A stretch of DNA of 24,000 nucleotides, from contig CAJTIM010000034.1 of NCBI GenBank assembly GCA_910576325.1, positions 9,942 to 33,941 of the forward strand, written 5' to 3'. The DNA is from Clostridia bacterium (GTDB taxonomy: Bacteria; Bacillota; Clostridia; Lachnospirales; Lachnospiraceae). Positions 9,822 to 23,890 of the stretch are shown piece after piece (the first letter of the stretch is position 1; each line of letters starts with the position of its first letter). A model generated the notes under the pieces. It saw only the letters and a program-made list of their open reading frames with translations, did no database searches and was not told the DNA's origin. The position numbers were made by a program, and so were the translations under genes.

Positions 9822-10558
9822 AAGGCATCAACCAGCTTCTTTACTAAATTTTTGTCCACAGCCTCATAGTCCTTTCTGTGAGGAGACTCCGCATATGCAT
9901 AGGAAACCTGCGGTCCTTCTGTAGTGGGATCGGTAAGCCATCCACGGCAGGAGCTGTGTACCTGACTGATTCCGGTACGCTCCATAAGCTCTGCGGCATT
10001 TCCTGCATTCATGCCGCTGCCGGCCAGAAGCTCGATTCTTTCCCCATATTCCTTTTGCAGCTTAGCCAAAAGCTCTATGCCGTCCACAGCCTTTTCCTGC
10101 CCGCCGCTGGTTAAAATGCGATCTATTCCAATATCAATCAGAATTTCAATAGCTTTGCAGGGATCTTGCACACAGTCAAAGGCACGGTGGAAGACTGCCT
10201 CTCCATGATGCTTCTTGATAATGCCCGTCATTTCCCGGGTCTGGTTTTCTTCTATCTCTCCGTTTTCATTGAGACAGCCAAAGGCAATGCCGTCGGCGCC
10301 GTTTTGAAGAAGAAGCTCGGCGTCGGCCTTCATAACCTCAAAGTCGGCAGCGCTGTAGCAGAAACCGGCTCCGCGGGGTCTGACCATAGCAATAACCTTC
10401 AGATCCGTATTCTTTTTTGTTAAAATGAGTGTTCCCAAAGACGGCGTTAAGCCTCCCAGGTACAGGGCGCTGTTCAGCTCAATGCGTTTGGCGCCTCCAT
10501 GATATGCCGCCAGTGCATCCTCATAGCCTCCGCAGCATATTTCCGCAACCTTTTCCAT
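9818..10558 (-). CDS. cutC: CutC-family protein (TIM-barrel protein annotated as copper homeostasis protein; true function unclear)
   Basis: The 246-aa protein starts MEKVAEICCGGYEDALAAYHGGAKRIELNSALYLGGLTPS, which is the characteristic CutC N-terminus, and its length fits the family. Confidence 0.85.
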   Translation of the reverse strand: MEKVAEICCGGYEDALAAYHGGAKRIELNSALYLGGLTPSLGTLILTKKNTDLKVIAMVRPRGAGFCYSAADFEVMKADAELLLQNGADGIAFGCLNENGEIEENQTREMTGIIKKHHGEAVFHRAFDCVQDPCKAIEILIDIGIDRILTSGGQEKAVDGIELLAKLQKEYGERIELLAGSGMNAGNAAELMERTGISQVHSSCRGWLTDPTTEGPQVSYAYAESPHRKDYEAVDKNLVKKLVDAL

Positions 10559-10588
10559 ATTTGTCCTCCATTCCAGTACCGTGATATC

Positions 10589-11680
10589 CTACCGAATCAT
10601 CAATGCAAATCCATGAGCCGGCCGGATGCAGTCCAGGATTAACTGCTCGCCTTCATTGATATGTCCCACATAATTGTAGTCATCACTGGCCTTAATCTCA
10701 TCCAGCACAATCATCAGCTCACCCGCATAATGCTTCAAGTTATCATTAACAATGATCACATCACCCTTCGTAAACACATCCTTATGATTCTCACGGGGAA
10801 CAATGCTTTCATTCTTATATTTTACCCTGGGAAAGCTGGATCTGACAACAAGTTCATTACAATCATCCCGGCTTGCATGAATATCACAGGTAATAAGCTC
10901 CCGTTCAATCTCGGAAATCCCTTCTTCCACATCCACCTTCATAGCCGGCTTGCTCAAGTCCGTCTCCGCCATGATTTTCAACTCTTCCTCACTGGCAAAA
11001 GCATTTCCAACCATAAAATCCGTACAAAGTCCCAGAGCACTTAAATGACGAAGCTGTAAATCAATCGGCAGATCCCGATGGATTTCCAAAGTCGGAAGTC
11101 CTTCATAGACCTCCCAAGGCCCATGCGTATTCTCCTCTCTGCTGGTCACAAAAGTCGCATTGGTCAAGCCCAAAGGCTGATACCGGCTGTTCAGCTCCTT
11201 ATAACGTTTCAACCCCATACCCGTGTTCCTCTGGGGATAAAAATTACTGCAAATACACATATTATTCCGGTCAGCGCCCTTCTCAATCATCAAATCCAGC
11301 GCCATAGAACAGGATGCATTGTATTCAATCAGAATCCCATAAGGATTTCTCGTAATCTGTATATCCTCAAATTCCCCAAAATGCCCGTCCAGGCGGATAA
11401 TATCCACACCCATCTGCGCAAAAACAGACAAGTCCATAGGCGCAGCCCCAAGTCTCTCAAACACCTGCGGATTCGTATCCACCGACACAATAAGCCCGCT
11501 CTCATGAGCCACCTTACAAAACTCCGTAAACTCATCCACAATCTTCTCCCGGCTCTCCTCCACCGACAAAAGACAAGTAAATACTCTCTGAAAGCCATAC
11601 CTTCCGGCCAGCTTCATATACTCATAACAAGCTTCCTTCGGTGCCCGCTCCGGATAAACGGAAATTCCCAGTCTCTTCAA
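10589..11680 (-). CDS. DUF871 / MupG-family protein (6-phospho-N-acetylmuramidase-type 6-phospho-glycosidase)
   Basis: The N-terminus KRLGISVYPERAPKEACYEYMKLAGRYGFQRVFTCLL and the ~360-aa length are typical of DUF871/MupG. The track start (GTG 11710) reads through the SD. I place the start at TTG 11680, 7 nt after GGAGG, which gives the family-typical MKRLGISVYP. Confidence 0.75.
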   Translation of the reverse strand: MKRLGISVYPERAPKEACYEYMKLAGRYGFQRVFTCLLSVEESREKIVDEFTEFCKVAHESGLIVSVDTNPQVFERLGAAPMDLSVFAQMGVDIIRLDGHFGEFEDIQITRNPYGILIEYNASCSMALDLMIEKGADRNNMCICSNFYPQRNTGMGLKRYKELNSRYQPLGLTNATFVTSREENTHGPWEVYEGLPTLEIHRDLPIDLQLRHLSALGLCTDFMVGNAFASEEELKIMAETDLSKPAMKVDVEEGISEIERELITCDIHASRDDCNELVVRSSFPRVKYKNESIVPRENHKDVFTKGDVIIVNDNLKHYAGELMIVLDEIKASDDYNYVGHINEGEQLILDCIRPAHGFALMIR

Positions 11681-11766
11681 TTCACTACCTCCATTCCAAT
11701 TGCGCAGCACCCCTAAAAATACACAAACACAAAATCAATCCGCACATTTTAAAGGATACTGCCGTT

Positions 11767-12888
11767 TCAGTTCCCTAACCCATCCATCAATCTATAAAAT
11801 GCATAGCCATAAATCTGCGCATTCTTTTCAATATCACAGATACGCATCCACTCATCCGGCATATGCCCAATCCCCTTCTGCCCCTTAAAGCTCGGCCCAA
11901 AAGGTACAATATTCTTCACCACCTTCGCATAACTGCCTCCGGTAGTCGTCACCGCGCTTCCATCCTCCTGCATAATCTCTTCATAAACATGCTCCAAAGT
12001 TTTCACCAAATACGTATCCTTATCAAAAAACACCGGGTCCAGATTCGAATCCAGCGACAAGGTCATATGAGGCGTACAAAGCTTCTCCAAAGCCTCCCGC
12101 ATCGTATCCAGAGAATAAGAAGCCGGATAACTGGAAACCAAAGTCAGTCCGCAGGTATCCCCCTCCTCAAAAAGCTCCACCTTCCGCACCTGATTCTTCC
12201 CAAACTCTTCATCCGCATAATCCACTCCAAGAGCAGACGACAAATCATTCTGATTCAAAACAAACCCATTCAAAAACCGAACCAGTTCCCCAAGCTCCGC
12301 CTTCGGCAGACTATACCGAAAAGCCGCCCTGCCGCGCTCCGCATAAATCACCGGATACTTACAGTCAGGAGTCCATCCCATCAAAGGATACTTGTGATTC
12401 TGAAAATACCACTTCATATCCTCCATTCCGGTCTCCTCATTCGTCCCAAAAATAATCTTCACCTTAATCGGAAACTCATACCCCAGATCCACAAGCGCCT
12501 TCAACCCATACAAACAGCAAAACATAGGCCCCTTATTATCCAAAACCCCCCTGGCATACAAAAAACCATCTTTCTCCGTACACACAAACGGATCCGTTTT
12601 CCACACCCCGTTCACATCCACCACATCCAGATGTCCCACACAGGCTATATACTCCTCCGTATCCGGCCCCCAGGAAGCAATCCCAATCTGATTCCCCACA
12701 TTCTCCGTCTCAAATCCAAGCCCTCTTGCAATCTCCAGAGCCTTATTCAGGCAATCCGTCACCCTAACCCCAAAAGGATGCTCCGGCGCAGCCGTATCCT
12801 GCCTGGAATCCATATTACAAATCGTCTTAATATCCCCCACCAAATCCGGAAGCAATTCTCCCACACGTTCAACAATTCTCTCCTTCAC
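11767..12888 (-). CDS. M20-family metallopeptidase (PepV-like dipeptidase)
   Basis: The protein has CVGHLDVVDV (His ligand), RGVLDNKGPM (Asp ligand) and FGTNEETGMEDM (Glu-Glu). It uses a GTG start 5 nt after AGGAGG. Confidence 0.8.
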   Translation of the reverse strand: MKERIVERVGELLPDLVGDIKTICNMDSRQDTAAPEHPFGVRVTDCLNKALEIARGLGFETENVGNQIGIASWGPDTEEYIACVGHLDVVDVNGVWKTDPFVCTEKDGFLYARGVLDNKGPMFCCLYGLKALVDLGYEFPIKVKIIFGTNEETGMEDMKWYFQNHKYPLMGWTPDCKYPVIYAERGRAAFRYSLPKAELGELVRFLNGFVLNQNDLSSALGVDYADEEFGKNQVRKVELFEEGDTCGLTLVSSYPASYSLDTMREALEKLCTPHMTLSLDSNLDPVFFDKDTYLVKTLEHVYEEIMQEDGSAVTTTGGSYAKVVKNIVPFGPSFKGQKGIGHMPDEWMRICDIEKNAQIYGYAFYRLMDGLGN

Positions 12889-13025
12889 AATAGCCTCCTA
12901 TTCCAGTTCCGTAATATCTATTACAACACACCCACATGAAATCAATTTCCAGTCACAAATGCACGTGCCTGTAAATCGATTTGTGCGTTGTAACAGATAC
13001 ACAATTCTTCTCAACAACCTACCGG

Positions 13026-13232
13026 GCTGTCGCAGAATCAGCCGGCAGGCTTTTCCGATATCCAGTGTCCGGCTATTCGCGCACACTCTGTCTGCTATGG
13101 ACGAACATTGCCTCATTCCGCACATCCTCCGCAAGCAACCACCAAGGCAATGTACGGTCAGAGCAGACAGAGTGTGCGTGAATCGTCCGAACACAGGATA
13201 TGGAAATGGCTGCCGGCTGATTCTGCGACAGC
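13026..13232. repeat. Long imperfect palindrome (~71-nt arms plus an inner stem), intergenic within the operon
   Basis: The left arm (13026-13096) is GCTGTCGCAGAATCAGCCGGCAGGCTTTTCCGATATCCAGTGTCCGGCTATTCGCGCACACTCTGTCTGCT. The reverse complement of the right arm (13162-13232) is GCTGTCGCAGAATCAGCCGGCAGCCATTTCCATATCCTGTGTTCGGACGATTCACGCACACTCTGTCTGCT. The outer 23 nt and inner 17 nt match perfectly. A further inner pair is ACATTGCC / GGCAATGT. Confidence 0.65.
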
Positions 13233-13247
13233 CTCACAACCTACCAC

Positions 13248-14201
13248 CTACTCCACAACAGGCGCCATCCTCACCCGCATATATTCCTCAAGCCACTCCT
13301 GATCCGCTTCTTTAAAACTACAATGCCCATCCTCTTCCCTGGTAACAAGATAAACAACCGGCTCCAACCCTTCCGCAGCCACACTAAACGAAAACCCTCC
13401 AATATTAGTAGCACATCCAAACTCCCCTTTACAGTTCATAGCCACCACCGAAAGATCCCCGGCCTCACCACGCTTCTCACGCAATCTCCGATCCAGATCC
13501 GTCACCGCCTTCTCACAAGCCTCCTGAGGCGACATCCCTTCCTTCATCAACCGCACAATCTCATAAGAAATACACCCTTTCATCAGGTCTTCTCCAAGCC
13601 CGGTAGCCGTAGCTCCGCCGACCTCAGAATCCGCATAAAATCCGGATCCTACAATCGGAGAATCCCCCACACGTCCGCTTCGCTTCATAAAAAGCCCGCT
13701 TGTACTGGTAGCTGCCGTCACCGTCCCGGAAGTATCCAGACAAACCATTCCCACCGTATCATGACCATCATAAGGTTTCAGCTCCTGATCCATCTCCTTC
13801 TTCCGCTTACGGTAAAAAGCCTTCGCCCTGTCCGTGAGCATTTCCTTCTCCTCAAACTGCATTTCCCGTGCGTACTTTTCCGCCCCCGCACCTACCAGAA
13901 CATTATTCACCTTTTCCTCACTGAGCTTCTTCGCAATACTGATGGGATTGGCAAAATCTTTAATCGCCCCCAGAGCGCCGACACTCATCGTATCCCCATC
14001 CATATAACCGGCATCAAGCTCCACAATCTGCTCCTCATTTGGCAGACCGCCGTAACCAACCGATTTATAATACGGAAAATCCTCCACCGCCTTAATAGCC
14101 GTCTCAATCGCCTTGCCGGAGGTCTCCCCCTTCTTCAGCATTTCATCCGCAAGCTCAATCCCTTCCTTGGCCATCCGCCAGGTCGCTATAATACCATACA
14201 T
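13248..14201 (-). CDS. Ntn-hydrolase of the asparaginase_2 family, glycosylasparaginase-like (HDT autoprocessing site)
   Basis: The 317-aa protein has the autoproteolysis/nucleophile motif YDGHDTVGMVCLD, followed by TSTSGLFMKRSGRVGDSPIVGSGFYAD and GGATATGLGEDLMK. His-Asp-Thr at the cleavage site is the pattern of glycosylasparaginases. Isoaspartyl peptidase/plant-type asparaginases usually have G-T at this position. Confidence 0.8.
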   Translation of the reverse strand: MYGIIATWRMAKEGIELADEMLKKGETSGKAIETAIKAVEDFPYYKSVGYGGLPNEEQIVELDAGYMDGDTMSVGALGAIKDFANPISIAKKLSEEKVNNVLVGAGAEKYAREMQFEEKEMLTDRAKAFYRKRKKEMDQELKPYDGHDTVGMVCLDTSGTVTAATSTSGLFMKRSGRVGDSPIVGSGFYADSEVGGATATGLGEDLMKGCISYEIVRLMKEGMSPQEACEKAVTDLDRRLREKRGEAGDLSVVAMNCKGEFGCATNIGGFSFSVAAEGLEPVVYLVTREEDGHCSFKEADQEWLEEYMRVRMAPVVE

Positions 14202-14335
14202 CTATATCACTCTCCTATTCCGTTCCGTAACATTCTTCCTGATACACCTTCATCAAATCATTTCCCGGCCGCAAATTCTTGCATCAGCACATTGATTTAT
14301 GCTCCCTGAAAATATCTCTGTTTCGGTTCCGCCGT

Positions 14336-15394
14336 TTATAATATACTTTCAAAAATCTCCCCGCTCATATCCTTCGCCAGCTCACAAACAAGCCGAATGC
14401 AAGCCTCCACATCATCCGTATGGATCATACTGTGATTCGTATGCATATACCGAATCGGAATCGAGAGCGTCATATTGATAACACCGTCAAACGCCTTATG
14501 AATATTCCCCGAATCCGTTCCGCCCTTGTTGAATACCGCATACTGATGGTCAATCCCATGCTTCCTGCAAATTCCTTCCACATACCGCACCAGTTTTCTG
14601 GGAGCAATGGAATTGGAATCAATCATAGACAGCACCACGCCCTTCCCCAGAGAGCAGATATTGTGATTGGCAGGCGTATCCCCGGCCAGTGTGGTATCAA
14701 TCGCAAATGCAATATCAGGGTGCACCCATTCCACCGCCGTTCTCGCTCCCCGAAGCCCCGGCTCCTCCTGAACGGTATTCGCCAGATACAGAGGCGTATG
14801 AACCTCATCCCGAAGCCGCTTAGCCGCTTCCAGCATAATATAATTTCCAATCCGGTCGTCAAATGCCTTGCAGGACACATATTTTGGATTCCGCATCACC
14901 TCAAAATGAGTCCAGGGCACTACCATATCTCCCACAGCAATCCCCAGAGAAAGAACCTCCTCCCGGTTCTCCACTCCCAGATCCAGATATATATCCTCCA
15001 TAGAAACCGTCTTGTTCCGAATCTCGGCAGGCAGCCCGTGTGTTGCCATACTCCCCATCAAAGCCGGATAAGACCCATTTTCCCTTGTGACAACCGTATA
15101 CCACTGTCCCAGAACAAGATGGCTCCACCAGCTCCCCACCGGCCGCAGCCTTAAAAAGCCCTGCTCGTCAATGGTCTCTACCATAAATCCAACCTCGTCC
15201 ATATGGGCGGCAATCATCATTTTCGGTCCCGGCCTGTCTTCACACTTTGCGGCAATGACGCTTCCAAGACCGTCCTTTCTGCAATTCAGGCCAAGGCCCC
15301 TGTACTCCTCCTCCAAAATACATCCAATCTCCTGCTCAAAGGAGGAAATACCCGGCGCTCCGCAAATCCGTTCCATTTTTTCCAAATCAACCAT
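14336..15394 (-). CDS. M42-family aminopeptidase (FrvX/YsdC/TET-like), canonical active site
   Basis: All five motifs are present: AAHMDEVGFMV, KAFDDRIGN, VQEEPGLRGA, AFAIDTT and IRYMHTNHSMIH. The track start (15463) is an upstream extension. I place the start at ATG 15394 (MVDLEKMERICGAPGISSFEQE), which overlaps the previous stop within ATGGTTGA. Confidence 0.85.
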   Translation of the reverse strand: MVDLEKMERICGAPGISSFEQEIGCILEEEYRGLGLNCRKDGLGSVIAAKCEDRPGPKMMIAAHMDEVGFMVETIDEQGFLRLRPVGSWWSHLVLGQWYTVVTRENGSYPALMGSMATHGLPAEIRNKTVSMEDIYLDLGVENREEVLSLGIAVGDMVVPWTHFEVMRNPKYVSCKAFDDRIGNYIMLEAAKRLRDEVHTPLYLANTVQEEPGLRGARTAVEWVHPDIAFAIDTTLAGDTPANHNICSLGKGVVLSMIDSNSIAPRKLVRYVEGICRKHGIDHQYAVFNKGGTDSGNIHKAFDGVINMTLSIPIRYMHTNHSMIHTDDVEACIRLVCELAKDMSGEIFESIL

Positions 15395-16412
15395 GCCCGT
15401 CACCCATTCCAAATCCCATAATTTTCTCCGAGTCCAAGGTACGCAGGTAAGAAGCCAATGCATCCGTCAGGGCATCCGCATCGCTGACCTTACAGATTTC
15501 ATTTGCGCTTCCCAGATGGTCCACAGCAATGCCGACGCTGATACTGGGGGTTCCCTTTAAGGTCTTATGAATAAAGGACCCGTCATTTCCCAGGAGGCCG
15601 AAATACTCCTTTGTCTCCGTCTGCCCGGCAAAATCCCGAAGAAGCGCCTGGGCGGGAAGCATCTGGCGATCATAATAGCCCAGAATCACCTTATCTCCCA
15701 ACTGAACCTTCCTTTTTGCCGTATCAAATGCCGTAAGCGCAATGGCCGCGTCCGGCCGTATCACATAGGTCGCTGTCTTAGTCCCCCGGTATCCGATGAC
15801 AGACTGGGCAACGCCCCCTGCTGCCAAATGAAAATCAAGCTCCGTATCCTTCAATTTTTCCAAAAGCTCCAGGATAACTTCATTCAGCACCCGCGGAAAC
15901 AGGGCCTTTGCAATCACAGTCCCGTCCTGCTCTCCAAAAGTGCCTGCATAGCCTGCCAGGTCTCCCGGATGAATCCGCTCCTTTGCCTCATCGCCGCTTA
16001 AACCGCAGGTGATAAAGAGATCCTCCGCGCTCTTGATCTCGCAGGAGTCCTCCAGAGCCTTTTTGTCCATGCCGATGACGCCGTCAATAAAAGTGTCCTC
16101 TCTGGTCAGAATCCGCACGCGCTGATGCAGCAGGGAACTAAGGGCAATACTCTCCAGAGGAATAAACGCCAGGGTTCCGTCCTTTTTCACCTCGGAAATC
16201 ATCAGTCCCACTTCATCCAGAGGGGAGGCAATCATAAGCGTTGCCGCCTTAGGGTTTTTTGATTTTTTTACGGCAAATACCGAGCCGAGGCGGTCATACT
16301 TTAACTCATCGCACAGAGGCTTACAGCTCTCCCGGAGAATTTGGGCCGCCGCCTGCTCCCCGCTGCTGACTCCAAAGCTGTTGCATAAGGTTTTCAATCT
16401 TTCTGTATTCAT
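15387..16412 (-). CDS. M42-fold paralogue with a degenerate metal/catalytic site (likely pseudo-peptidase)
   Basis: The 341-aa protein aligns to the M42 layout, but ASPLDEVGLMI replaces AHMDEVG (His lost), KALFPRVLN replaces K.FDDR.G (Asp lost) and AQSVIGYRGT replaces QEE.GLRGA (Glu-Glu lost). An AAGGAG SD precedes ATG 16412. Confidence 0.7.
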   Translation of the reverse strand: MNTERLKTLCNSFGVSSGEQAAAQILRESCKPLCDELKYDRLGSVFAVKKSKNPKAATLMIASPLDEVGLMISEVKKDGTLAFIPLESIALSSLLHQRVRILTREDTFIDGVIGMDKKALEDSCEIKSAEDLFITCGLSGDEAKERIHPGDLAGYAGTFGEQDGTVIAKALFPRVLNEVILELLEKLKDTELDFHLAAGGVAQSVIGYRGTKTATYVIRPDAAIALTAFDTAKRKVQLGDKVILGYYDRQMLPAQALLRDFAGQTETKEYFGLLGNDGSFIHKTLKGTPSISVGIAVDHLGSANEICKVSDADALTDALASYLRTLDSEKIMGFGMGDGHG

Positions 16413-16428
16413 ATTTCTCCTTTTAAAA

Positions 16429-16501
16429 GGGCTGCCGCAAAATAAGACAGCAGACTTTTCCGATTATCGGAAATGGCTGATGGCCTATTTTGCAACAGCC
16501 C
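16429..16501 (-). terminator. Long composite hairpin followed by a U run, between the GrdB-like gene and the M42-like gene (terminator, attenuator or processing site)
   Basis: On the minus strand, GGGCUGUUGCAAAAUA pairs with UAUUUUGCGGCAGCCC, giving 16 bp including two G-U pairs that would be A-C mismatches on the plus strand. The inner hairpin is TTTCCGAT-A-ATCGGAAA (16457-16473). The stem is followed by UUUU and then directly by the SD: AAAAGGAGAAATATG. Confidence 0.5.
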
Positions 16502-16521
16502 CTTTCACCACATTTCTATTC

Positions 16522-17046
16522 TTAATAGCAGACACGCTTCTTGATATCTTCCAAATCAGAAGAGGATTCAACCGTTCCCTTAATCAGATCGCAGAGATCC
16601 GAAAAGCTGTCATTTAATCCGGTTCCGCCCTTTTTCGGCATCTTTACAATAGGCGTCTTGTCCTTGTAAAGCTCAATGGTCTCTCCGTTTTCCACTGACA
16701 TCATGGCACAGGACTTGATTTCCGTTTTCTCCAGGATAGAGGTTGAAATCATAGCTGCCATTTTCGCGTAGTCAGGGAAGTTAAAACAGGGACCGCATAC
16801 CACGAAGTCCGGTTTTACCTTCTTTACCATAGCCGTCATCTTTGTCACAACCTCTTCCTGGTTGTTCAGAAAGTATTCGTTGCCGCAGTAGAGGGTAGCC
16901 GCTACCTTGGCTCCAATCTTCTCCAGATGGGATTCCATCATTAAGGCTGAGCCGATTCCGCCTTTTACGGCCGTCAGTCCCACGTTGGGATTGGACTTCC
17001 CTCCGGCTCCTGCCAGACCCTGATCAAAAATTAATACGATATTCAT
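16522..17046 (-). CDS. Stand-alone protein resembling the N-terminal ~170 aa of glycine/sarcosine/betaine/proline reductase component B (GrdB/PrdB family)
   Basis: MNIVLIFDQGLAGAGGKSNPNVGLTAVKGGIGSALMMESHLEKIGAKVAATLYCGNEYFLNNQEEVVTKMTAMVKKVKPDFVVCGPCFNFPDY follows the GrdB N-terminal pattern as I remember it (H.INQF.AG.GGEE...GP.FNAGRY). The protein stops at TAA after 174 aa, well before the GrdB selenocysteine region. The track start at 17109 reads through the leader. The true start is ATG 17046, 6 nt after AGGAGG. Confidence 0.65.
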   Translation of the reverse strand: MNIVLIFDQGLAGAGGKSNPNVGLTAVKGGIGSALMMESHLEKIGAKVAATLYCGNEYFLNNQEEVVTKMTAMVKKVKPDFVVCGPCFNFPDYAKMAAMISTSILEKTEIKSCAMMSVENGETIELYKDKTPIVKMPKKGGTGLNDSFSDLCDLIKGTVESSSDLEDIKKRVCY

Positions 17047-17052
17047 ACTCTG

Positions 17053-17189
17053 CCTCCTATTTATAGTCGCTGCGCGACAGCACTGAAGGGTAAAGTCACT
17101 TCGACACACTTGTAGTGAGAGGAACTTTTATTCGAAAGGACACTCATAAAAGTTCCTCTCGTGTGTCTTTGCGACTTTACCGTCCAACC
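17053..17189 (-). repeat. Structured intergenic element, copy 1 (candidate 5' leader RNA of the GrdB-like cistron, or a MITE-like repeat)
   Basis: It is about 89% identical to copy 2. On the minus strand the folds are P1 UAAAGUC/GACUUUA, P2 GACACAC/GUGUGUC, a perfect 15-bp helix GAGAGGAACUUUUAU/AUAAAAGUUCCUCUC with loop GAGUGUCCUUUCGA, and then the mini-hairpin GUCGC-GCA-GCGAC directly before UAUAAAUAGGAGG and the ATG. Confidence 0.6.
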
Positions 17190-17208
17190 GATAATACTGT
17201 TTTTTGTC

Positions 17209-17231
17209 AGGGCTGCCCTCACGACAGCCCT
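17209..17231. other. Short GC-rich hairpin just downstream of the EIIC stop
   Basis: The plus strand reads AGGGCTGCC-CTCAC-GACAGCCCT. On the minus strand this forms a 9-bp stem (one G-U pair) with a GUGAG loop. The T run lies on the plus-strand side (TTCCTTTTTT), not downstream on the minus strand, so its role as a terminator for the EIIC transcript is doubtful. Confidence 0.35.
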
Positions 17232-17257
17232 TTCCTTTTTTATGTAGCTATATTTTC

Positions 17258-18610
17258 TCAGTCAAACTCCAGGTCGTCAAAGGACAAATCATCCAATTCG
17301 TCAGTCTTATTGCTCGTCTTGCTCTCATCGTCCACGTAGCGCTTGTCAAGCAGCTTGAAGAACGGATAGTAGATAAGAATATCCACCGCAAGCTGCACAA
17401 TCTGGACAACAGAACCCATGAAGGAACCGGTCACCAGGAATCCCGAGAAGATGATGGGACAGGTCCAGGGAAGCTGCACGCCCAAGGTAATCGGCATAAT
17501 ACCCGTTACCGTAGCCAGATATCCGATAATCGTATTTGCAACCGGCGCAAGGATGAAAGGAATTGCCATCAGCGGGTTCAATACAATCGGAAGACCGAAA
17601 ATCAACGGCTCGTTGATACCGAAGATACCGGCCGGCAGGGACAGCTTTCCTAAAGTCTTCATACGGTTGGATTTTCCAAGGAATGCCATCATAATAACAA
17701 GACCCAGGGTCGAGCCGCCGCCTCCGAAGTTGCAGAAGAAATCGGAGAAGCCTGCCGTAAAGATGTTGGTCATCTCAAGTCCTGCCTGAGCCGCCTCGTA
17801 GTTCTCCACAGTCAGTACCTTATGGATGGGGCTGAAAATGGTGTTAGTTACAGCCGGTCCGTTGATACCGAAGAACCAGAACAGCGTGGACAAGAACTGA
17901 TAGATTACCTCAAATCCGGACAATCTGCCAAGTCCCACCAGAGGCGCCTGGAGTACCCGGTAAATAAAGTAATGTACATACTCAAATGAAGTATGGTCGA
18001 AAATAATACCTACTACAAAGAATACGGTCATCGCAATTGCGGAAGGAATCAGGGAAGCAAAGGATTCCATAACCGCAGGCGGCACGCCGTCGGGCATCTT
18101 AATCACAAGCTTTTTGCGGATGGCCCATGCGTAAATCTCAACCGACAGAATCGCCGTAATCATGGCCAGGAACATTCCGGCCGTTCCCAGGAAGGTAAAC
18201 TGGAATCCGCTGAAGGATGCGGCCTCTGCTGCGCCCTCCACTTCCACTAATGTCTTCTGGGGCGTAATAATCAAAAAGCATACCAGTGCTACCACAGCAC
18301 CGCCGATTCGATTCTCCAGTCCCTTTTCTCTTGCATAGCAGTAACCGATACTCAATACACCAAGAAGCGCCACGCAGTCAAAGGCGATAGCGGATACTCT
18401 TCCCAGGTATGCATCCCAGCCGGCCCCGAAGATGGAGGTCATCATATTCAGGAAGCCCTCCAGGGGGAAGTTGGCAATCAGCAGGAAAATGGAACCCACA
18501 ATGGTGATGGGAACCGTAATCAGAAAACCGTCGCGGATCGCAGACAGTACCTTGTTCTTGGACAGCGCGTTTGCAACGGGCATCAAGAACTTCTCAAGTT
18601 TTTGCATCAT
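17258..18610 (-). CDS. PTS EIIC component, lactose/cellobiose (chitobiose) family
   Basis: The 450-aa polytopic protein has the N-terminus MMQKLEKFLMPVANALSKNKVLSAIRDGFLITVPITIVGSIFLLIANFP, typical of CelB/ChbC-type EIIC. It also has an unusual acidic C-terminal tail. Confidence 0.9.
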   Translation of the reverse strand: MMQKLEKFLMPVANALSKNKVLSAIRDGFLITVPITIVGSIFLLIANFPLEGFLNMMTSIFGAGWDAYLGRVSAIAFDCVALLGVLSIGYCYAREKGLENRIGGAVVALVCFLIITPQKTLVEVEGAAEAASFSGFQFTFLGTAGMFLAMITAILSVEIYAWAIRKKLVIKMPDGVPPAVMESFASLIPSAIAMTVFFVVGIIFDHTSFEYVHYFIYRVLQAPLVGLGRLSGFEVIYQFLSTLFWFFGINGPAVTNTIFSPIHKVLTVENYEAAQAGLEMTNIFTAGFSDFFCNFGGGGSTLGLVIMMAFLGKSNRMKTLGKLSLPAGIFGINEPLIFGLPIVLNPLMAIPFILAPVANTIIGYLATVTGIMPITLGVQLPWTCPIIFSGFLVTGSFMGSVVQIVQLAVDILIYYPFFKLLDKRYVDDESKTSNKTDELDDLSFDDLEFD

Positions 18611-18613
18611 AAC

Positions 18614-18937
18614 TTATTTCCCTCTACTTTCTTTGTAAAGCTTCATTGCTTTCTTTAGTACTCTTTCACCGTCCATGTTGCCATAGTCGGTGCTGTCGAT
18701 CACAGCAACGATGTGATCCTGGCCGTAACGCTCGTTTACCTTATCAAACAGGTGCTTTACCTGAGGTCCCAAGAGAATTACTTCCGGATTGAACTCACTG
18801 ACAACATCGCTCATATGTGTGTCTGAGAATGCCTTGATCTCAATGGGAAGCTCATGGGCGTCCGCCGTTTTCTGCATTTTGCTTGCAAGAAGGCTGGTTG
18901 ACATTCCTGCATTACAGAATAAATAGAATCGCTTCAT
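18614..18937 (-). CDS. PTS EIIB component, cellobiose type
   Basis: MKRFYLFCNAGMSTSLLASKMQ contains the active-site Cys in the LFCNAGMSTS loop, and the ~105-aa size fits. The track start at 18943 (MTMKRF) lies only 3 nt after AGGAGG, so the second ATG (18937) is preferred. Confidence 0.9.
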   Translation of the reverse strand: MKRFYLFCNAGMSTSLLASKMQKTADAHELPIEIKAFSDTHMSDVVSEFNPEVILLGPQVKHLFDKVNERYGQDHIVAVIDSTDYGNMDGERVLKKAMKLYKESRGK

Positions 18938-18962
18938 GGTCATTTTCCTCCTTTCTGTCTCT

Positions 18963-19265
18963 TTACTTTTTATAAAGCTCTATCAGCTCGGAAGCCAGTA
19001 ACTTAATTGTCTCCGCAGCCATCAGCTGATCCTCCGCATGCATCAGAAGCAGGCATACTTCTGTCTTTTCGCCGCTTGCTTCCTTGGTGATTAATTCCGC
19101 ATGCTCCTTGTGTCCGTTCACATAGCAGGAATCGCCATGCTTCATTGCCTCTTCCGCCTTCTCAAAGTCGCCCTTCTTGGCAGCTTCCAGTGCGGAGATG
19201 TAGTCGCTCTTTGCCTCTCCTACCGCAGAGATGATCTTAAAACAGATCAGTTCCATTTCTTCCAT
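18963..19265 (-). CDS. PTS EIIA component, lactose/cellobiose family
   Basis: The 100-aa helical protein has LLLMHAEDQLMAAE (the phosphorylatable His context HA.D.LM) and an N-terminal ISAVGEAKS motif. Confidence 0.9.
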   Translation of the reverse strand: MEEMELICFKIISAVGEAKSDYISALEAAKKGDFEKAEEAMKHGDSCYVNGHKEHAELITKEASGEKTEVCLLLMHAEDQLMAAETIKLLASELIELYKK

Positions 19266-19297
19266 AAATCCCGTCCTCCATTCCAGTTCTGTATGAA

Positions 19298-19858
19298 TTA
19301 TTTATTGTCGATTACCTTACTGCCGGCCCAGATGTCATGCGCCGCTTTTCCGTCGCGGTATGCAAGCCACACAGACACTATAAATACGCCAAACAGCAGA
19401 TAATTCAGCGCCTTTCCCGCTGCGCCCAGGGTCAGCATGGTAAGCATCTGTACCGCATACTGGCCGGTGAGCAGAAAGGCTCCCTCCAAAAGCATCACTC
19501 CCGCAAGCTGTCTCACGGCAAGACGGCCCGCCGGCAGGGGATTGTTGTCCTCCCCCACGATGCGAAGGTTCATAAGTCTTTTCCCAAGGGTCTGCCCTTT
19601 CCACACCCACATGGGAATCACATAGTAGTAAACGGCTCCGAATACCAGGCCCAAAAATCCTGCAAGCCATCCGTAGGGGGCATCAAAAAGGGTTAAATCC
19701 GTATTGATAACTACCTCTCCTGTGAGCATATTCCACAAAAGCCCTACCGGAATCACGCTGAAAGCCGAACCAAGATATCCGTCAAGAAGATAGGCAAATC
19801 CTCTTCGGCTCCACGGGGCCGGTACATAAACGGGTTCAGACTTCTTTTTTCCCTTCAT
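19298..19858 (-). CDS. RDD-family membrane protein
   Basis: The 186-aa protein has the N-terminal WSRRGFAYLLDGYL (RDD-family R..A...D pattern), three predicted hydrophobic segments and a conserved GQTLGKRLMNLRIV. It has a strong SD (AGGAGGTTGAA then ATG). Confidence 0.8.
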   Translation of the reverse strand: MKGKKKSEPVYVPAPWSRRGFAYLLDGYLGSAFSVIPVGLLWNMLTGEVVINTDLTLFDAPYGWLAGFLGLVFGAVYYYVIPMWVWKGQTLGKRLMNLRIVGEDNNPLPAGRLAVRQLAGVMLLEGAFLLTGQYAVQMLTMLTLGAAGKALNYLLFGVFIVSVWLAYRDGKAAHDIWAGSKVIDNK

Positions 19859-19863
19859 TTCAA

Positions 19864-19999
19864 CCTCCTATTTAAAGTCGCTGCGCGACAGCTCTAAAGG
19901 GTAAAGTCACTTCGATGCACCTGTAATGAGAGAAACTTTCATTCGAAAGGACACTCATGAAAGTTCCTCTCGTGCATCTTTGCGACTTTATCATCCAGC
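19864..19999 (-). repeat. Structured intergenic element, copy 2 (candidate 5' leader RNA of the first operon cistron, or a MITE-like repeat)
   Basis: The architecture matches copy 1. P2 is GAUGCAC/GUGCAUC, a double compensatory change relative to copy 1. The long helix is GAGAGGAACUUUCAU/AUGAAAGUUUCUCUC, with one compensatory pair and one G-U that would be an A-C mismatch on the plus strand. It ends GUCGCGCAGCGACUUUAAAUAGGAGGUUGAA and then the ATG. Confidence 0.6.
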
Positions 20000-20040
20000 A
20001 ACAAATCTTTTTCAAAAACACTTGACATTTCTTAGCTGGA

Positions 20041-21945
20041 CTATTCTATCAATTCTACAAAGGCTTTGGCTGTTTTCGCCTCCCGGATTCTGGACAGAAG
20101 AAGCGTGTCGTCGCAGATATTCCCGAACCAGTCAAAGAAAATCTTTAAAAGCTCCTTCTCATCATCCCGGATAGCCAGAAGCAGCACCAGATGAACCTGG
20201 TAATCTCCCCACTGAACCGGCTTTTTCAGAATGGCAATGCTCATGGTAGACTGAATGGCCGAGTAGTTCAGCGCATGGGGAATGGCATAGCCGTAGCTGA
20301 ATGAGGTGTACGCCATCTTCTCCCGGTCAAAGGTGGATTTCTTAAAGGTTTCGTCCACCCGGCCGCCCTCATACATCCGGTCGCACATATGGGTGATAAC
20401 TTCCTCATAGGTGTCGCAGTCCAGATTGTAATAGTAGTAATCTTCCAGAATCAGACACTTGATAAAGTTATTAAACTCCGTTTTGTAATGGCGCTTATCC
20501 AGGTCCGTAATAGCCTTGAATATCTTATACTCATCACTGGTATTCACAAACATGCTGATGACAATCGTAGGTATATCCAGCTTGTGGGTCAGCGGTATAG
20601 TAGAGATAATCAAATCCGGGTTCAGGCTTTCTATCGCCGGCGCCTCGTAGTAATTCAATATGGTATCAATGACGATCCGATCTCCAAAACGCTCCAGTAT
20701 CTTATCGCTGCATGCCCCCGACATGGTGTTGCTGTTGGGCTGAATCAAAACCACATGATAGTAATATTTGATGTTCAGCCGGTCATAAGCCGCGCCCAGG
20801 TGAATGGCCAGGAAGCCAATCTCATCCTCCGAAACCGAGGTCTCCATATATTCCTCGATGATATGCCCGACGAACACGCTCATCTCAAATACCATCGGAT
20901 AGGTCTTTTTGATTTCCGGCAGACAGATATTGGAAACAACCGCTCCCAGCTGTATCCGCTCCAGAAGATTCTGAAGGTGCAGTACCAGACCGTCCTTAAA
21001 GAGCATATCCGCCGAAAAATCAATGTCATACCTCTGCCGGGCCATGCTTACGATTTTCAGCATCAGCTCCTCTGCCTGTACCAGATAATCTTCCTTCTCA
21101 AACAGGGTGCTTCTCTGCCTTCCGATCAGCAGATTTGCAAATAAGACAACCTCATTCTCATTCAGCTCAAAGGAAAGTGTTGCTGTCACCCTTGTGAAAA
21201 ACTCCATCGCAATCTTATATTCCGGAGTGTCCCTTATTTCACAGCGGTAACGGTTCGTCTCCACATAGTTGTAGTTCATCATTCTCTGAATGGACACGCC
21301 TACGTGTATCATGAGCATGGGGAAGGTTTCCTCCCGCACCCGGTAACTGTATTTCTCCAGGATTTCTTCCAGGATATTTTTTACCTTTATCAGATCAAAA
21401 TTGGGGAAAAGCTCATCAATTTTATTCAGGTTGATGAAGTTTCCTTTGGTCTCATTGGCAAGTAAGTCCTTGTAAACAAACCGTTTGCTTTCCTCGCTCC
21501 CTTTTAGATAAATGTGGCTGCCTGTTTTGACCAACTCCACGCCGTCGTATTTTTCCAGCATTTCGGAAATCTTTTTCATATCATTTTTGATGGTAAATTC
21601 ACTTACGTAAATGTCATACTGGAGATCAAAAATGTTTAATTTCCGTTTGTTTAAAAGCAGTTTTTCGATGATGTATTTGCATCGTTCCTCGGAGGTCTGG
21701 GGGATATGCTCCCTTTGCTCCAAATCGCTTTCTTCCGAAACATCCTCATTGATCCGGTAGCCATAGCGCACGCTGGATTCTATAATGCCCTTGTAGGTCT
21801 TTCCCAACTGCTCCATGTCGCTGCGGATGGTCCGGTCCGAAACGCTGAGAATCGTTGACAGCTCCTTCCCTGTGATCCAATCCTTTTTCTCTTTTAAAAT
21901 TTGAAGAATTTTTTTCTGTCTCATTTGCATGGCTTTATTATACAT
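20041..21945 (-). CDS. PRD-domain transcriptional regulator of the LicR/MtlR/CelR type (HTH, PRD x2, EIIB-like, EIIA-like)
   Basis: There is an N-terminal winged-HTH region (KKILQILKEKKDWITGKELSTILSVSDRTIRSDMEQL), central PRD-like repeats and a C-terminal EIIA(Mtl/Fru)-like domain (SFSYGYAIPHALNYSAIQSTMSIAILKKPVQWGDYQVHLVLLLAI). The track start at GTG 21969 reads through the SD. ATG 21945 (MYNKAMQMRQKK) follows AAAGGAGGTGAGTTT. Confidence 0.85.
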   Translation of the reverse strand: MYNKAMQMRQKKILQILKEKKDWITGKELSTILSVSDRTIRSDMEQLGKTYKGIIESSVRYGYRINEDVSEESDLEQREHIPQTSEERCKYIIEKLLLNKRKLNIFDLQYDIYVSEFTIKNDMKKISEMLEKYDGVELVKTGSHIYLKGSEESKRFVYKDLLANETKGNFINLNKIDELFPNFDLIKVKNILEEILEKYSYRVREETFPMLMIHVGVSIQRMMNYNYVETNRYRCEIRDTPEYKIAMEFFTRVTATLSFELNENEVVLFANLLIGRQRSTLFEKEDYLVQAEELMLKIVSMARQRYDIDFSADMLFKDGLVLHLQNLLERIQLGAVVSNICLPEIKKTYPMVFEMSVFVGHIIEEYMETSVSEDEIGFLAIHLGAAYDRLNIKYYYHVVLIQPNSNTMSGACSDKILERFGDRIVIDTILNYYEAPAIESLNPDLIISTIPLTHKLDIPTIVISMFVNTSDEYKIFKAITDLDKRHYKTEFNNFIKCLILEDYYYYNLDCDTYEEVITHMCDRMYEGGRVDETFKKSTFDREKMAYTSFSYGYAIPHALNYSAIQSTMSIAILKKPVQWGDYQVHLVLLLAIRDDEKELLKIFFDWFGNICDDTLLLSRIREAKTAKAFVELIE

Positions 21946-22151
21946 AAACTCACCTCCTTTATTTTCCACATAATTTCCTAGCTGTTAGGAAAAAGTACGT
22001 GTCATTTTATATAACCTGTACATTGTAGCATGGGTTTGGAGGTTTCTCTACGTAAAAAACGACTATGCTGCGGATAATTTTTTATTTTCAGTTGTATATA
22101 CTTAGTGATATACTAAAGGATATCCGCCATCTTTAACCATTAGGAGATTTT

Positions 22152-22456: not shown

Positions 22457-23878
22457 ATGGAAAAAGATTATTTATTGAAGGAACGCCCTTTGCGTGCCTT
22501 GTTTTTGTTTGCGCTGCCGATGATCATCGGGAATCTGTTTCAGCAGTTTTATACAATGGCCGACTCTATGGTGGTGGGCCGCTATGTGAGTGAAAATGCC
22601 CTGGCTGCCGTGGGAGCTTCTTATTCTCTTACGAATGTATTTATCTGCGTGGCTATCGGGGGCGGCGTAGGGGCTTCCGTGCTTACCAGCCGGTATTTCG
22701 GCGCTCAGGAATACGGACGTATGAAAAAGTCGATTTCTACGGCTCTTCTTACTTTTTTGGGCATCAGTCTGGCCTTAGCAGGGCTGGGGCTTTTTATGGG
22801 GCGGGAGTTTATGGTGTTTTTAAAGACGCCGGCGGATATTCTTGATATGGCGGTGGAATATCTGAATATTTATTTTATGGGACTGCCCTTTCTTTTTATG
22901 TACAATGTGCTCTCCTCTATGTTCAATGCACTGGGGCGGTCCAGGATTCCGTTATATCTGCTGATCTTCTCTTCTGTTTTTAATATTGTGCTGGATATTT
23001 ATCTGGTGCGCTCTCTGGGACTTGGAATCGCCGGGGTGGCCTGGGCTACGCTGATTGCTCAGGGGATTTCGGCTTTGCTGTCTTTTTTCATTTTTCTTCG
23101 GGAGCTGCGGGGATATCCCGGATCTTCCGGAGACTATGATACCGGAAACTCTATTCCTACCGTTCATTCCAAAAAATATTCGTCCCTTTCACGATTTATT
23201 CGCAGATTTTACAGTACAGAAGAGCTTTTAACCATGTGCCGTGTGGCTCTTCCATCCATTTTCCAGCAATCCACCGTGTCTATTGGTATGATGCTGGTTC
23301 AATCCGTAGTCAACAGCTTCGGCCCGCAGATGCTGGCAGGCTTCTCTGCCGGAATGCGCGTGGAGAGTATCTGCATCGTCCCTATGGCCGCTCTGGGCAA
23401 TGCCATGTCCTCCTACACCGCACAAAATATGGGGGCTAATCAAAAGGAGCGTGTAGTAAAAGGCTATCACGCAGCCCTTCGCCTGGCAGCCCTTTTTGCC
23501 CTGCTTCTCTGTCTGGCCTTGGAGTTCTTTCATTTTCCCATCATCTCCTCCTTTCTCGGAAGCGACGGCACGAAGCTTGCTCTGGAAACGGGAAGCAGCT
23601 ACCTGAGATTTATCGGATTCTTCTTCGCCCTTATCGGCCTTAAAATGTGTACGGACGGCCTTCTCCGGGGCGCCGCCGATATGAAGATGTTCACCATAGC
23701 CAACCTTGCCAATCTGTCGCTGCGTGTCATATTCGCGATCACTATGGCTCCCCGGTTCGGCATTGCTATGGTATGGTATGCGGTGCCTTTGGGATGGCTG
23801 GTAAACTTCTTGATCTCTTTTACGGAATACCGCAGCGGAAAATGGCAGACAAAGCTGAACAGGGCCGCCGCAAAATAA
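22457..23878 (+). CDS. MATE-family efflux transporter
   Basis: The 473-aa, 12-TM-type protein has the N-terminus LFLFALPMIIGNLFQQFYTMADSMVVGRYVSENALAAVGAS, typical of MATE/NorM-like proteins, and shows the two-halves repeat. Confidence 0.9.
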   Translation: MEKDYLLKERPLRALFLFALPMIIGNLFQQFYTMADSMVVGRYVSENALAAVGASYSLTNVFICVAIGGGVGASVLTSRYFGAQEYGRMKKSISTALLTFLGISLALAGLGLFMGREFMVFLKTPADILDMAVEYLNIYFMGLPFLFMYNVLSSMFNALGRSRIPLYLLIFSSVFNIVLDIYLVRSLGLGIAGVAWATLIAQGISALLSFFIFLRELRGYPGSSGDYDTGNSIPTVHSKKYSSLSRFIRRFYSTEELLTMCRVALPSIFQQSTVSIGMMLVQSVVNSFGPQMLAGFSAGMRVESICIVPMAALGNAMSSYTAQNMGANQKERVVKGYHAALRLAALFALLLCLALEFFHFPIISSFLGSDGTKLALETGSSYLRFIGFFFALIGLKMCTDGLLRGAADMKMFTIANLANLSLRVIFAITMAPRFGIAMVWYAVPLGWLVNFLISFTEYRSGKWQTKLNRAAAK

Positions 23879-23890
23879 GGCCGCCCTGTT
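23858..23890. terminator. Probable bidirectional terminator between the MATE gene and the convergent gene
   Basis: AACAGGGCCGCC (23858-23869) pairs with GGCCGCCCTGTT (23879-23890), a 12-bp GC-rich stem with one mismatch and a 9-nt loop. The stem overlaps the MATE stop codon, and T-rich sequence follows (TTCACTGTTATTTCTT). Confidence 0.55.

Follow-up and report, generated by a model that had tools for sequence, protein, structure and literature searches.

A modular repeat at Shine-Dalgarno sequences of gut Lachnospiraceae and its probable link to an IS110-family insertion sequence

Introduction

IS900 and its relatives, i.e., insertion sequences (ISs) of the IS110 family in Mycobacterium avium subsp. 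paratuberculosis, insert in a single orientation and, reportedly, without flanking direct repeats, and the IS900 target CATGN6TCTCCTT (CATGNNNNNNTCTCCTT) is the reverse complement of AAGGAGA-N6-CATG, that is, of a ribosome binding site (RBS) plus ATG (PMC8141618). Here, we study a short structured element that occurs twice in a 24,000-nt stretch of contig CAJTIM010000034.1 from a Lachnospiraceae genome (the window in the following). Both copies are read on the minus strand and adjoin the Shine-Dalgarno sequences (SDs) of two cistrons, a GrdB-like gene and an RDD gene. Both belong to a non-coding repeat family of modular build that is dispersed in gut Lachnospiraceae. We consider it probable that this repeat is a non-autonomous modular associate or derivative of an SD-targeting IS110 (bridge-recombinase) system and is co-transcribed with its host gene.

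IS110 elements rebuild a promoter across their circle junction and have a conserved CT core (PMC11208160). In ISPpu9, an IS110-family element of Pseudomonas putida, a short structured RNA module named ssr9 circularises and spreads selfishly with the transposase provided in trans. It is a separate small-RNA gene inserted in repetitive extragenic palindromic (REP) sequences, and solo copies of it are scattered in the genome (PMC12288879). For repeats that resemble MITEs (miniature transposable elements with inverted repeats), clustering and nesting are known, and Correia elements are found predominantly upstream of genes; the respective review makes no mention of a strictly sense, SD-abutting placement (PMC10969869). 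Putative mobile promoters are very similar upstream regions on unrelated genes, within as well as between genomes, some of which are structured RNAs (PMC3575422, Nijveen, Matus-Garcia and van Passel 2012). Our literature search on MITEs at SDs in Firmicutes and on Lachnospiraceae repeats returned no prior description. To our knowledge, strictly sense, SD-abutting placement has not been reported for any MITE family.

Results and discussion

Layout of the two copies

A repeat search with subsequent alignment identified the two copies as direct repeats of 134 nt each (17053-17186 and 19864-19997, minus strand) with 90% identity, which agrees with a preliminary description of this DNA (~137 nt, ~89%). 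As reported there as well, their 3' ends are 6 nt and 5 nt away from the ATGs of the GrdB-like gene (17046-17044) and the RDD gene (19858-19856), respectively. For copy 2, the extent given previously was too short, i.e., a further 5' module of ~50 nt (19991-20040) reaches up to the stop codon of the upstream regulator gene, such that the composite fills the entire spacer from the regulator stop codon to the RDD start codon. The individual parts are listed below, where hyphens within sequences mark junctions.

19864..20045, minus strand: full composite of copy 2, comprising the left junction AAT-AG, module A, unit B, the tail and the right junction AAAT-AG-GAGG
20041..20045, minus strand: left junction AATAG of copy 2, whose TAG (20043-20041) serves the PRD regulator as stop codon
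19991..20040, minus strand: module A of copy 2, TCCAGCTAAGAAATGTCAAG...GCTGGATGA, matching an IS110-family terminus
19900..19992, minus strand: unit B core of copy 2 with three stacked helices (11 bp outer helix, 7 bp, and 15 bp with a 14-nt loop)
19877..19889, minus strand: mini-hairpin GUCGC-GCA-GCGAC in the tail of copy 2
19864..19870, minus strand: right junction TAGGAGG of copy 2, in which the core AG (19869-19868) precedes GAGG (19867-19864), the rest of the host SD
17053..17181, minus strand: copy 1, made up of the core of unit B (17089-17181), a tail that contains the mini-hairpin (17066-17078), and the junction AAAT-AG-GAGG
17058-17057 and 17056-17053, minus strand: AG and GAGG, respectively, of the copy 1 junction
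17182..17251, minus strand: region 5' of copy 1, with ATAG directly after the EIIC stop codon and a GGGCUG...CAGCCC hairpin (17209-17230)
20041..21969, minus strand: PRD regulator (HTH_11, Mga, PRD, EIIA_2; DNA-binding type), given for context only and no partner of the element

The unit B of copy 2 has the inverted termini G(A)TAAAGTC...GACTTTACC. The AG of the left junction of copy 2 (20042-20041) is the counterpart of the core dinucleotide at the IS110 junctions discussed below.

Distribution and placement of the family

Assembly breaks within the element are seen in contigs that encode an identical RDD protein and point to a repeat. We searched a species-representative genome set with a 19-mer from the 3' arm of unit B (TCGAAGTGACTTTACCCTT) and obtained 44 loci (individual loci are denoted by L numbers in the following), 42 of them in Lachnospiraceae-type genomes, while the other 2 are chance matches in other phyla. 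Single genomes contain many such loci, namely 14 in MGBC000113, 11 in a Lachnoclostridium metagenome-assembled genome and 7 in isolate 1XD21-13. Extra copies without the 19-mer are present at about one per 40 kb according to a profile search of the fetched loci. Metagenomes were scanned with the first 22 nt of module A (AGTCCAGCTAAGAAATGTCAAG), which matched at least 120 loci. Among the 123 matches listed, 30 are followed by unit B, 31 are too near to a contig end to be judged and 62 are followed by something else, which yields at least 30 further A+B loci among the matches listed. Viral contigs show no match to the 19-mer of B and one to the 22-mer of A, and carriage by phages was rejected on these numbers. 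The metagenome contigs (L001-L004 and many of L056-L135) very often start or stop 30-55 nt inside the repeats of this family, which makes the latter a systematic cause of assembly breaks at gene starts.

Taken over Lachnospiraceae genomes and metagenomes, the element precedes about 70 unrelated genes, with purM, glmS, pyrG, ilvD, rnfE, rnfB, a V-ATPase subunit gene as well as phosphotransferase system (PTS) and ABC transporter genes among those downstream. It is in sense orientation to the downstream gene at all ~45 independent genome sites. At ~38 of these, the start codon of a long open reading frame (ORF) is found 5-10 nt past GGAGG, and the majority of the copies have the ending ...AAT-AG-GAGG-N5-10-ATG. 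Divergent gene pairs (L025, L044) have a separate sense copy for each gene. That is, the dozens of copies that the preliminary description had associated with a selfish repeat do exist, but the random orientation and position named along with them are not observed: the placement is strictly sense and mostly SD-abutting.

A leader common to dozens of genes might bind a global trans factor (small RNA, RNA-binding protein or thermosensor) and thereby define a dispersed regulon. This would fit the high conservation of several unpaired parts, i.e., of the internal loops as well as of loop AUGAGUGCCCUUUCGAAU and bulge AUUACAGG. We nevertheless consider it improbable, given that the host genes are functionally incoherent, hairpin-deleted copies persist and no partner was found. 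Furthermore, the loop, which had been called invariant from the two window copies, varies within the family (e.g., GAGUGCUCUUUCGA in L001, besides other variants), and high identity is equally predicted by recent spread and gene conversion.

Modular structure and junctions

Within the family, module A spans ~50 nt (TCCAGCTAAGAAATGTCAAG...TTTTTTGCTGGAC) with the inverted termini GTCCAGC...GCTGGAC. Unit B is a foldback hairpin GGTAAAGTC...GACTTTACC and is followed by the tail, i.e., CTTTAGTGCC, the mini-hairpin and TTTAAAT. Units range from 130 to 190 nt in length and are bounded by AAT-AG on the left and AG-GAGG on the right. Tandem B units with AG in between are found in L010, L014, L022, L029, L037 and L047, and the hairpin is internally deleted in L008, L022, L027 and L047. 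Nested insertions are always located at the AG next to the SD. An A+B unit sits exactly between AAATAG and GAGG of an older tail in L024 and L040, while L018 and L043 have a further repeat, termed Z (see last section), placed after the B tail. The smallest remnant (L099) comprises 20 nt, i.e., AG-TCCAGCTAAGAAATGTCA-AG-GAGG.

This arrangement of A, B(n) and tail resembles that of BOX elements, which are built from modules in the order A-B(n)-C. Like BOX (pneumococcal), Correia (Neisseria) and ERIC (enterobacterial) elements, the repeat is short, non-coding, multi-copy and palindromic; the likeness would extend to co-transcription with neighbouring genes and the ability to affect mRNA processing or expression. 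In sequence, by contrast, it is probably unrelated to all three.

AG or (A)TAG is found at both junctions, and some copies show longer matching flanks (GATAG in L046, ATGG in L045-2, TAG in L029, TAGG in L006). Since the 5-nt flank variants do not co-vary in A-type copies, a shared 2-nt core fits better than a true target duplication, and a 5-nt target duplication is unlikely for the same reason.

The perfect inverted termini of 9-11 nt and the foldback palindrome of unit B could also be those of a classical MITE. Here, a DDE transposase would recognise GGTAAAGTC...GACTTTACC, SD adjacency and sense orientation would result from selection, and module A would be an unrelated neighbour. The inverted repeat of IS256 starts with GATAAAGTC, which may resemble the unit B termini. 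We judge this explanation to be very unlikely. On its 3' side, unit B is always flanked by its own tail, and a target duplication of 8-9 bp is absent around it. Our search for an autonomous element with GGTAAAGTC termini returned no long element bounded by them in ~1.2 Mb of fetched loci, such that this candidate was dropped. In addition, selection alone is unlikely to result in ~45/~45 sense and ~38 SD-abutting insertions with native spacing, and there is an IS that uses the same slot in the same orientation.

An IS110-family element at SDs

This IS was found among the matches of the metagenome scan, where most of the 62 other matches listed represent the terminus of a longer element. Its copies align across ~1831 bp (1.83 kb) and encode a 418-aa protein with Pfam matches to DEDD_Tnp_IS110 (E = 1e-13) and Transposase_20 (E = 2.3e-20; L059:2134-3438, minus strand). 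Among the matches listed, transposase homologues are present in at least about 40 loci, at least 69 left and at least 22 right IS junctions are distinct, and a start codon follows past 22/22 right junctions. The junction logo reads A(.67)A(.86)-AG-G-A(.86)-G(.95)-G(.82), and the overall layout is a variable flank ...AA-AG-TCCAGCTAAG..., the transposase gene in antisense, and ...CCATTATTATACT-AG-GAGG-N6-9-ATG. The core reads CT in the direction of the transposase gene, and an inverted copy of the 22-mer was not found at the far IS end. The IS bears marks of the IS110 family in that it is inserted site-specifically and in one orientation, lacks long inverted repeats and has a conserved core dinucleotide at each junction.

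When the IS ends are joined in silico (...TTGACATTTCTTAGCTGGA + CT + AGTATAAT...), TTGACA-17-TATAAT arises across the core; a circularised IS would accordingly carry the junction TTAGCTGGA-CT-AGTATAAT. In this respect, the IS is like the IS621/IS110 bridge-RNA recombinases (Durrant et al. 2024, PMC11208160), with which it shares the CT core (AG in host sense) at both junctions, a sigma-70 promoter rebuilt across the joined ends and a long non-coding left end (~400 nt here). A further possible likeness is that segments of the left-end RNA, a putative bridge RNA, match both target strands. Namely, GAAGGAGG is complementary to the target strand CCTCCTTC, while CCUCCUU, located ~115 nt past GAAGGAGG, is identical to CCTCCTTC. 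Besides these two target-matching segments, the left-end RNA contains a donor-like GUAUAAU. In IS variants of ~78% identity, CCUCCUU is unchanged while the first segment varies (GAAGGAGA, GAAGGGGG). The IS left end has no Rfam match at the gathering score. Unlike for IS621, the natural target here is the SD and not a REP-type repeat.

With regard to IS900, the Lachnospiraceae IS is alike in having a DEDD transposase and in being inserted at a motif of RBS and start codon, here AA-AG-GAGG with a start codon 6-9 nt downstream; its transposase gene is antisense to the host gene. The insertion point of IS900 lies between RBS and ATG. The Lachnospiraceae IS, by contrast, belongs to another phylum and is inserted within or directly 5' of the SD, which is rebuilt as TAG-GAGG. 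IS900 is a precedent for SD targeting by an IS110 member. While the window contains short elements only and no IS, the IS900 paper (PMC8141618) makes no mention of short structured non-autonomous derivatives.

A second, different IS110-family transposase gene (L059:3401-4615, plus strand) is located head-to-head with the first IS and cuts its left end, which suggests that IS110 elements insert into each other.

Relation between repeat and IS

Module A of copy 2 aligns over ~55 nt with the IS terminus, i.e., with the end downstream of the transposase gene when read reversed. The first 22 nt from the junction AG (AGTCCAGCTAAGAAATGTCAAG, 20042-20021) are identical to the IS tip (22/22). Furthermore, repeat composite and IS occupy the same AG...AG-GAGG slot in the same orientation. 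The sense, SD-abutting placement of the repeat would be explained by this SD-targeting IS110-family element, whose terminus matches module A of copy 2.

With ISPpu9, there is a precedent for the independent spread of a short module that encodes an RNA and makes use of an IS110 transposase. Unlike ssr9, the repeat studied here would be located inside mRNAs at SDs, and it has a far higher copy number. It also differs from the regions of the mobile-promoter survey, which covered positions -150 to -50 and named no mechanism, in that a targeting system is implicated and no consistent internal promoter is present.

The 22-nt IS terminus is also found joined to another palindromic module, AGGAAATTTAAAACAGTCTCGGAACGG...GCAGAGACGGAACTGGAAT-AG-GAG (metagenome loci L105, L143, L157). 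This module is in sense orientation, adjoins the start codon and occurs in tandem in L105 and L143.

Empty sites in orthologous operons

Orthologous operons were identified via homologues of the GrdB-like protein. The lengths of the two spacers are as follows.

L050, 89% protein identity: regulator-RDD spacer 14 nt, EIIC-GrdB spacer 34 nt
L054, 80% protein identity: regulator-RDD spacer 15 nt, EIIC-GrdB spacer 33 nt
Window: regulator-RDD spacer 182 nt, EIIC-GrdB spacer 211 nt

The element is absent from both junctions in L050 and L054. The SD plus spacer of the GrdB-like gene, AGGAGGCAGAGTATG, is identical in the window, L052 and L049, the latter two being without this repeat; L050 has AGGAGGCAGCTTATG instead. 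Since AGGAGGCAGAGTATG is shared with repeat-free orthologues, the element sits directly 5' of a pre-existing host SD and supplies none. Thus, the proposal of a MITE-like palindromic repeat that happens to provide an SD holds for the palindromic repeat but not for the SD, which belongs to the host.

In the orthologue L049 (93% identity), both slots are occupied by other repeat modules. Even near-identical strains differ just 5' of copy 1, i.e., L001 and L016 have GGACTGTCGCGCAGCGACCAGG at this place, which is the tail of another B unit. The slot is a hot spot. The stop of the window regulator, GAATAG, is identical in L049, and the ancestral regulator-RDD junction of the window would have been GAATAG-GAGGTTGAAATG.

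These comparisons also bear on the idea of a leader that is specific for this regulon, i.e., a riboswitch or antiterminator target that would control the operon of PTS and peptidase genes. The presence of two copies in a single operon, beside a PRD regulator, and a stable fold with compensatory differences speak for it. Its distribution refutes it, leaving it next to no probability: the element is missing from the orthologous operons (80-89% protein identity) and precedes more than 40 unrelated genes. In addition, the regulator is of the DNA-binding HTH/Mga type without an RNA-binding CAT domain according to Pfam. In line with the preliminary description, which recognised no known riboswitch, T-box or RAT consensus, Rfam gives no match at the gathering score across the window, and at E<=10 only chance matches on the hairpin (a miRNA, snoRNAs) are reported. 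No terminator 3' of the hairpin was found in the window copies, and there is no SD-sequestering alternative. For the switch helix that had been proposed between the 5' UAAAGUCGC and the 3' GCGACUUUA, 82.9% of the pairs can form, but 113/500 shuffles are as good and there is no covariation; the helix is broken in copies whose mini-hairpin covaried. The element belongs to a large repeat family that is selfish or semi-domesticated, and it does not regulate this operon.

A related difference between species is observed at an orthologous junction of L027 (4347-4394) and L039 (reverse complement 1496-1710), where one species has the full A+B+tail unit and the other the last ~45 nt only. In the latter species, the TGA stop of the upstream gene is supplied by the GTGACTTTACC arm of the element.

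RNA fold, covariation and SD accessibility

Folding of both copies reproduced the structure that had been drawn for them, i.e., outer, 7-bp and 15-bp helices plus the mini-hairpin. The energies are -59.7 kcal/mol (z = -6.2) for copy 1 and -54.3 kcal/mol (z = -5.1) for copy 2, which none of 200 dinucleotide shuffles reached. The alignment likewise shows the reported compensatory change of the second stem (GACACAC/GUGUGUC vs. GAUGCAC/GUGCAUC) as well as the U-A to C-G swap.

We extended the covariation analysis to 43 distinct full copies of the family. Most of them were picked via the 19-mer in the outer 3' arm, such that variation of the outer helix is under-sampled, and kinship as well as gene conversion among copies inflate the covariation counts. 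Standard pairs are found in 98.2% of the cells, and 11/38 pairs change on both sides (55 cells). None of 500 shuffles reached the observed values, while pairing falls to ~40-49% in slid controls. Within the mini-hairpin, 3/5 pairs covary across the family (GUCGC/GCGAC, GUUGC/GCAAC, AUCAC/GUGAU). The gene-sense strand shows 104 G·U vs. 16 A·C combinations, and the folded strand is thus the mRNA-sense strand, as had been assumed from a single pair. That is, the fold is selected on the sense strand.

The SD is unpaired with probability 0.485, compared to 0.370 when the upstream part is shuffled (31/47 copies, p = 1e-4). According to these models, the fold of unit B appears self-contained and does not gate the SD, which seems no more occluded than with random sequence but slightly less.

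These data are also what one would expect of a portable 5'-UTR (untranslated region) module that benefits the host, i.e., a hairpin with unpaired consensus SD that, whatever its origin, is kept for raising or standardising expression. Possible routes are protection from RNase J/Y by the stem-loop or a ribosome-bound SD, an RNase III site that uncouples cistrons, or insulation of the initiation region. Conservation of the fold via compensatory changes with a sense-strand G·U bias fits this, as do orthologous copies that are kept across species with covariation (L007/L028, L005/L033, L019/L045, L027/L039) and the better SD accessibility compared to shuffled upstream sequence. Many hosts are housekeeping genes, where harmful insertions would be purged, and processing by RNase III is on record for Correia elements, as are RNase E-related effects for ERIC elements (PMC10969869). 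On the other hand, the gain in accessibility is small (0.49 vs. 0.37), orthologous operons work without the element and hairpin deletions are tolerated (L008, L022, L027, L047). Purifying selection can moreover be mimicked by gene conversion, and the tails of the orthologous copies L019-2 and L045-2 differ in a genome-specific manner. On balance, we find a host-beneficial module doubtful, albeit a serious alternative to the non-autonomous IS110 derivative.

No consistent internal promoter or conserved upstream ORF was found in the family, and the individual candidates were rejected. A sigma-54 promoter (TGGA-N-...GTCGCA) at the 5' edge has, by inspection, a GG/GC spacing that is one base too long. 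Only a few copies (L018, L038, L044) could have a sigma-70 promoter in module A (TTGAAA-17/19-TAAAGT), and a consensus scan was unconvincing; the putative -35 position is in the most variable part of the module. At several loci, a native promoter is located directly upstream (L021 (TGTTATAAT), L033, L035). Finally, for a 28-codon upstream ORF MSALSNESFSHYRCVEVTLPFSAVAQRL starting at an ATG in the loop, the SD-like GAGAGG is buried in the 15-bp helix and the stop position varies. This ATG is lost in the diverged copies L007, L028 and L031, which keep the helix.

Proposed mechanism and significance

Mobilisation of A+B units by such a recombinase would proceed as follows. The recombinase would target the SD-like sequence AAAGGAGG, and every insertion would regenerate ...T-AG-GAGG, such that the host gene would keep a working SD and the site would remain a target. 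A slot that is rebuilt at each insertion would explain the nested and tandem arrays. In the window, both copies would have entered tight cistron junctions of an ancestrally compact operon of the order regulator-RDD-PTS-GrdB. The element would be co-transcribed in the operon mRNA, where unit B would fold alone into a ~33-bp interrupted hairpin followed by the mini-hairpin. Most likely, the element would insulate the downstream cistron almost neutrally or give it modest 5' protection or processing, and it would not sense a ligand.

Several observations weigh against this derivation of the repeat from an IS110 system. There is no IS110 transposase in the window or in the 44 unit-B genome loci, and a cognate autonomous element of these genomes is therefore hypothetical. 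Local alignments of unit B plus tail with the IS left end are no better than those of shuffles, and a homology of B to this end was rejected on these scores. The SD-proximal ends differ, i.e., ...CTTTAAAT-AG in the repeat vs. ...TTATACT-AG in the IS, such that use of the same donor-binding guide by the repeat is questionable. Immediately 5' of the core, T predominates within the repeat family, as opposed to A at the IS targets. Copy 1 is missing a clear module A and is preceded by a degenerate remnant like its 3' end (ACAGTATTATCGGTTGGACG, 17181-17200). The 124-nt unit-number polymorphism between L064 and L170, which have identical flanks, is equally explicable by unequal crossing-over. Finally, the G·U bias informs about the folding strand only and not about a host benefit.

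A more far-reaching version of the derivation may be put forward tentatively, and we would not bet on it. Here, a natural bridge-RNA-guided IS110 element programmed to the SD would have spawned structured passenger modules (A, B, Z and others) in the 5' UTRs and cistron junctions of ~100 genes per gut Lachnospiraceae genome. Each insertion would rebuild the SD, which would leave the site reusable and the gene on, and genes across the genome would come to share a single selectable RNA leader, reversibly added or removed. If true, this would be a case of natural, reusable and orientation-fixed insertion at translation-initiation sites, which bears on the choice of safe targets by bridge recombinases and on the bulk rewriting of housekeeping 5' UTRs.

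The point of interest is the placement rule together with its probable cause, i.e., an SD-targeting IS110 lineage with structured mRNA-borne derivatives. For annotation, a false riboswitch candidate is removed and a repeat that breaks metagenome assemblies at gene starts is explained. With regard to mobile elements, the guide of an IS110 lineage of abundant gut bacteria is apparently set to the SD, and short derivatives would sit in mRNAs without silencing them. In addition, dozens of natural hairpin variants in front of different genes provide a test set to examine how 5' structure acts on the stability and translation of mRNAs in Clostridia.

Further features of the window

The gene context of the two copies comprises the PRD regulator, the RDD protein, lactose/cellobiose-type PTS IIA, IIB and IIC, the GrdB-like protein, two M42 peptidases, asparaginase-2 and an M20 peptidase. 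The operon at 9818-17046 (minus strand) also contains MupG-like and CutC genes, and its gene order is kept in relatives. The GrdB-like protein has 174 aa and matches the N-terminal half only of the GRDB Pfam model. The operon looks as if it served to take up and degrade a glycosylated amino acid or peptide.

There are other repeat families with the same kind of end. One of them is Z, the third repeat of the leader type in the window, which is found at 12894-13000 (minus strand; ...CACAAATCGATTTACAGGCACGTGCATTTGTGACTGGAAATTGATTTCATG...GATATTACGGAACTGGAAT-AG-GAGG) and adjoins the SD of the gene for the M20 peptidase, with GTG at 12888. Its end reads ...GGATATTACGGAACTGGAAT-AG-GAGG (also written ...GGAACTGGAAT-AG), and full palindromic Z repeats, likewise ending at AG-GAGG, are present in L018 and L043.

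A separate palindromic intergenic element covers 13025-13233 and occurs in shorter form at 16425-16500 and 23858-23884. In the first of these places, the hairpin GGCTGTCGCAGAATCAGCCGGCAGCC is interrupted by the insertion of a ~180-nt foldback. The same hairpin is uninterrupted in the near-identical strain L001, i.e., the two strains show a clean filled/empty polymorphism at this site.

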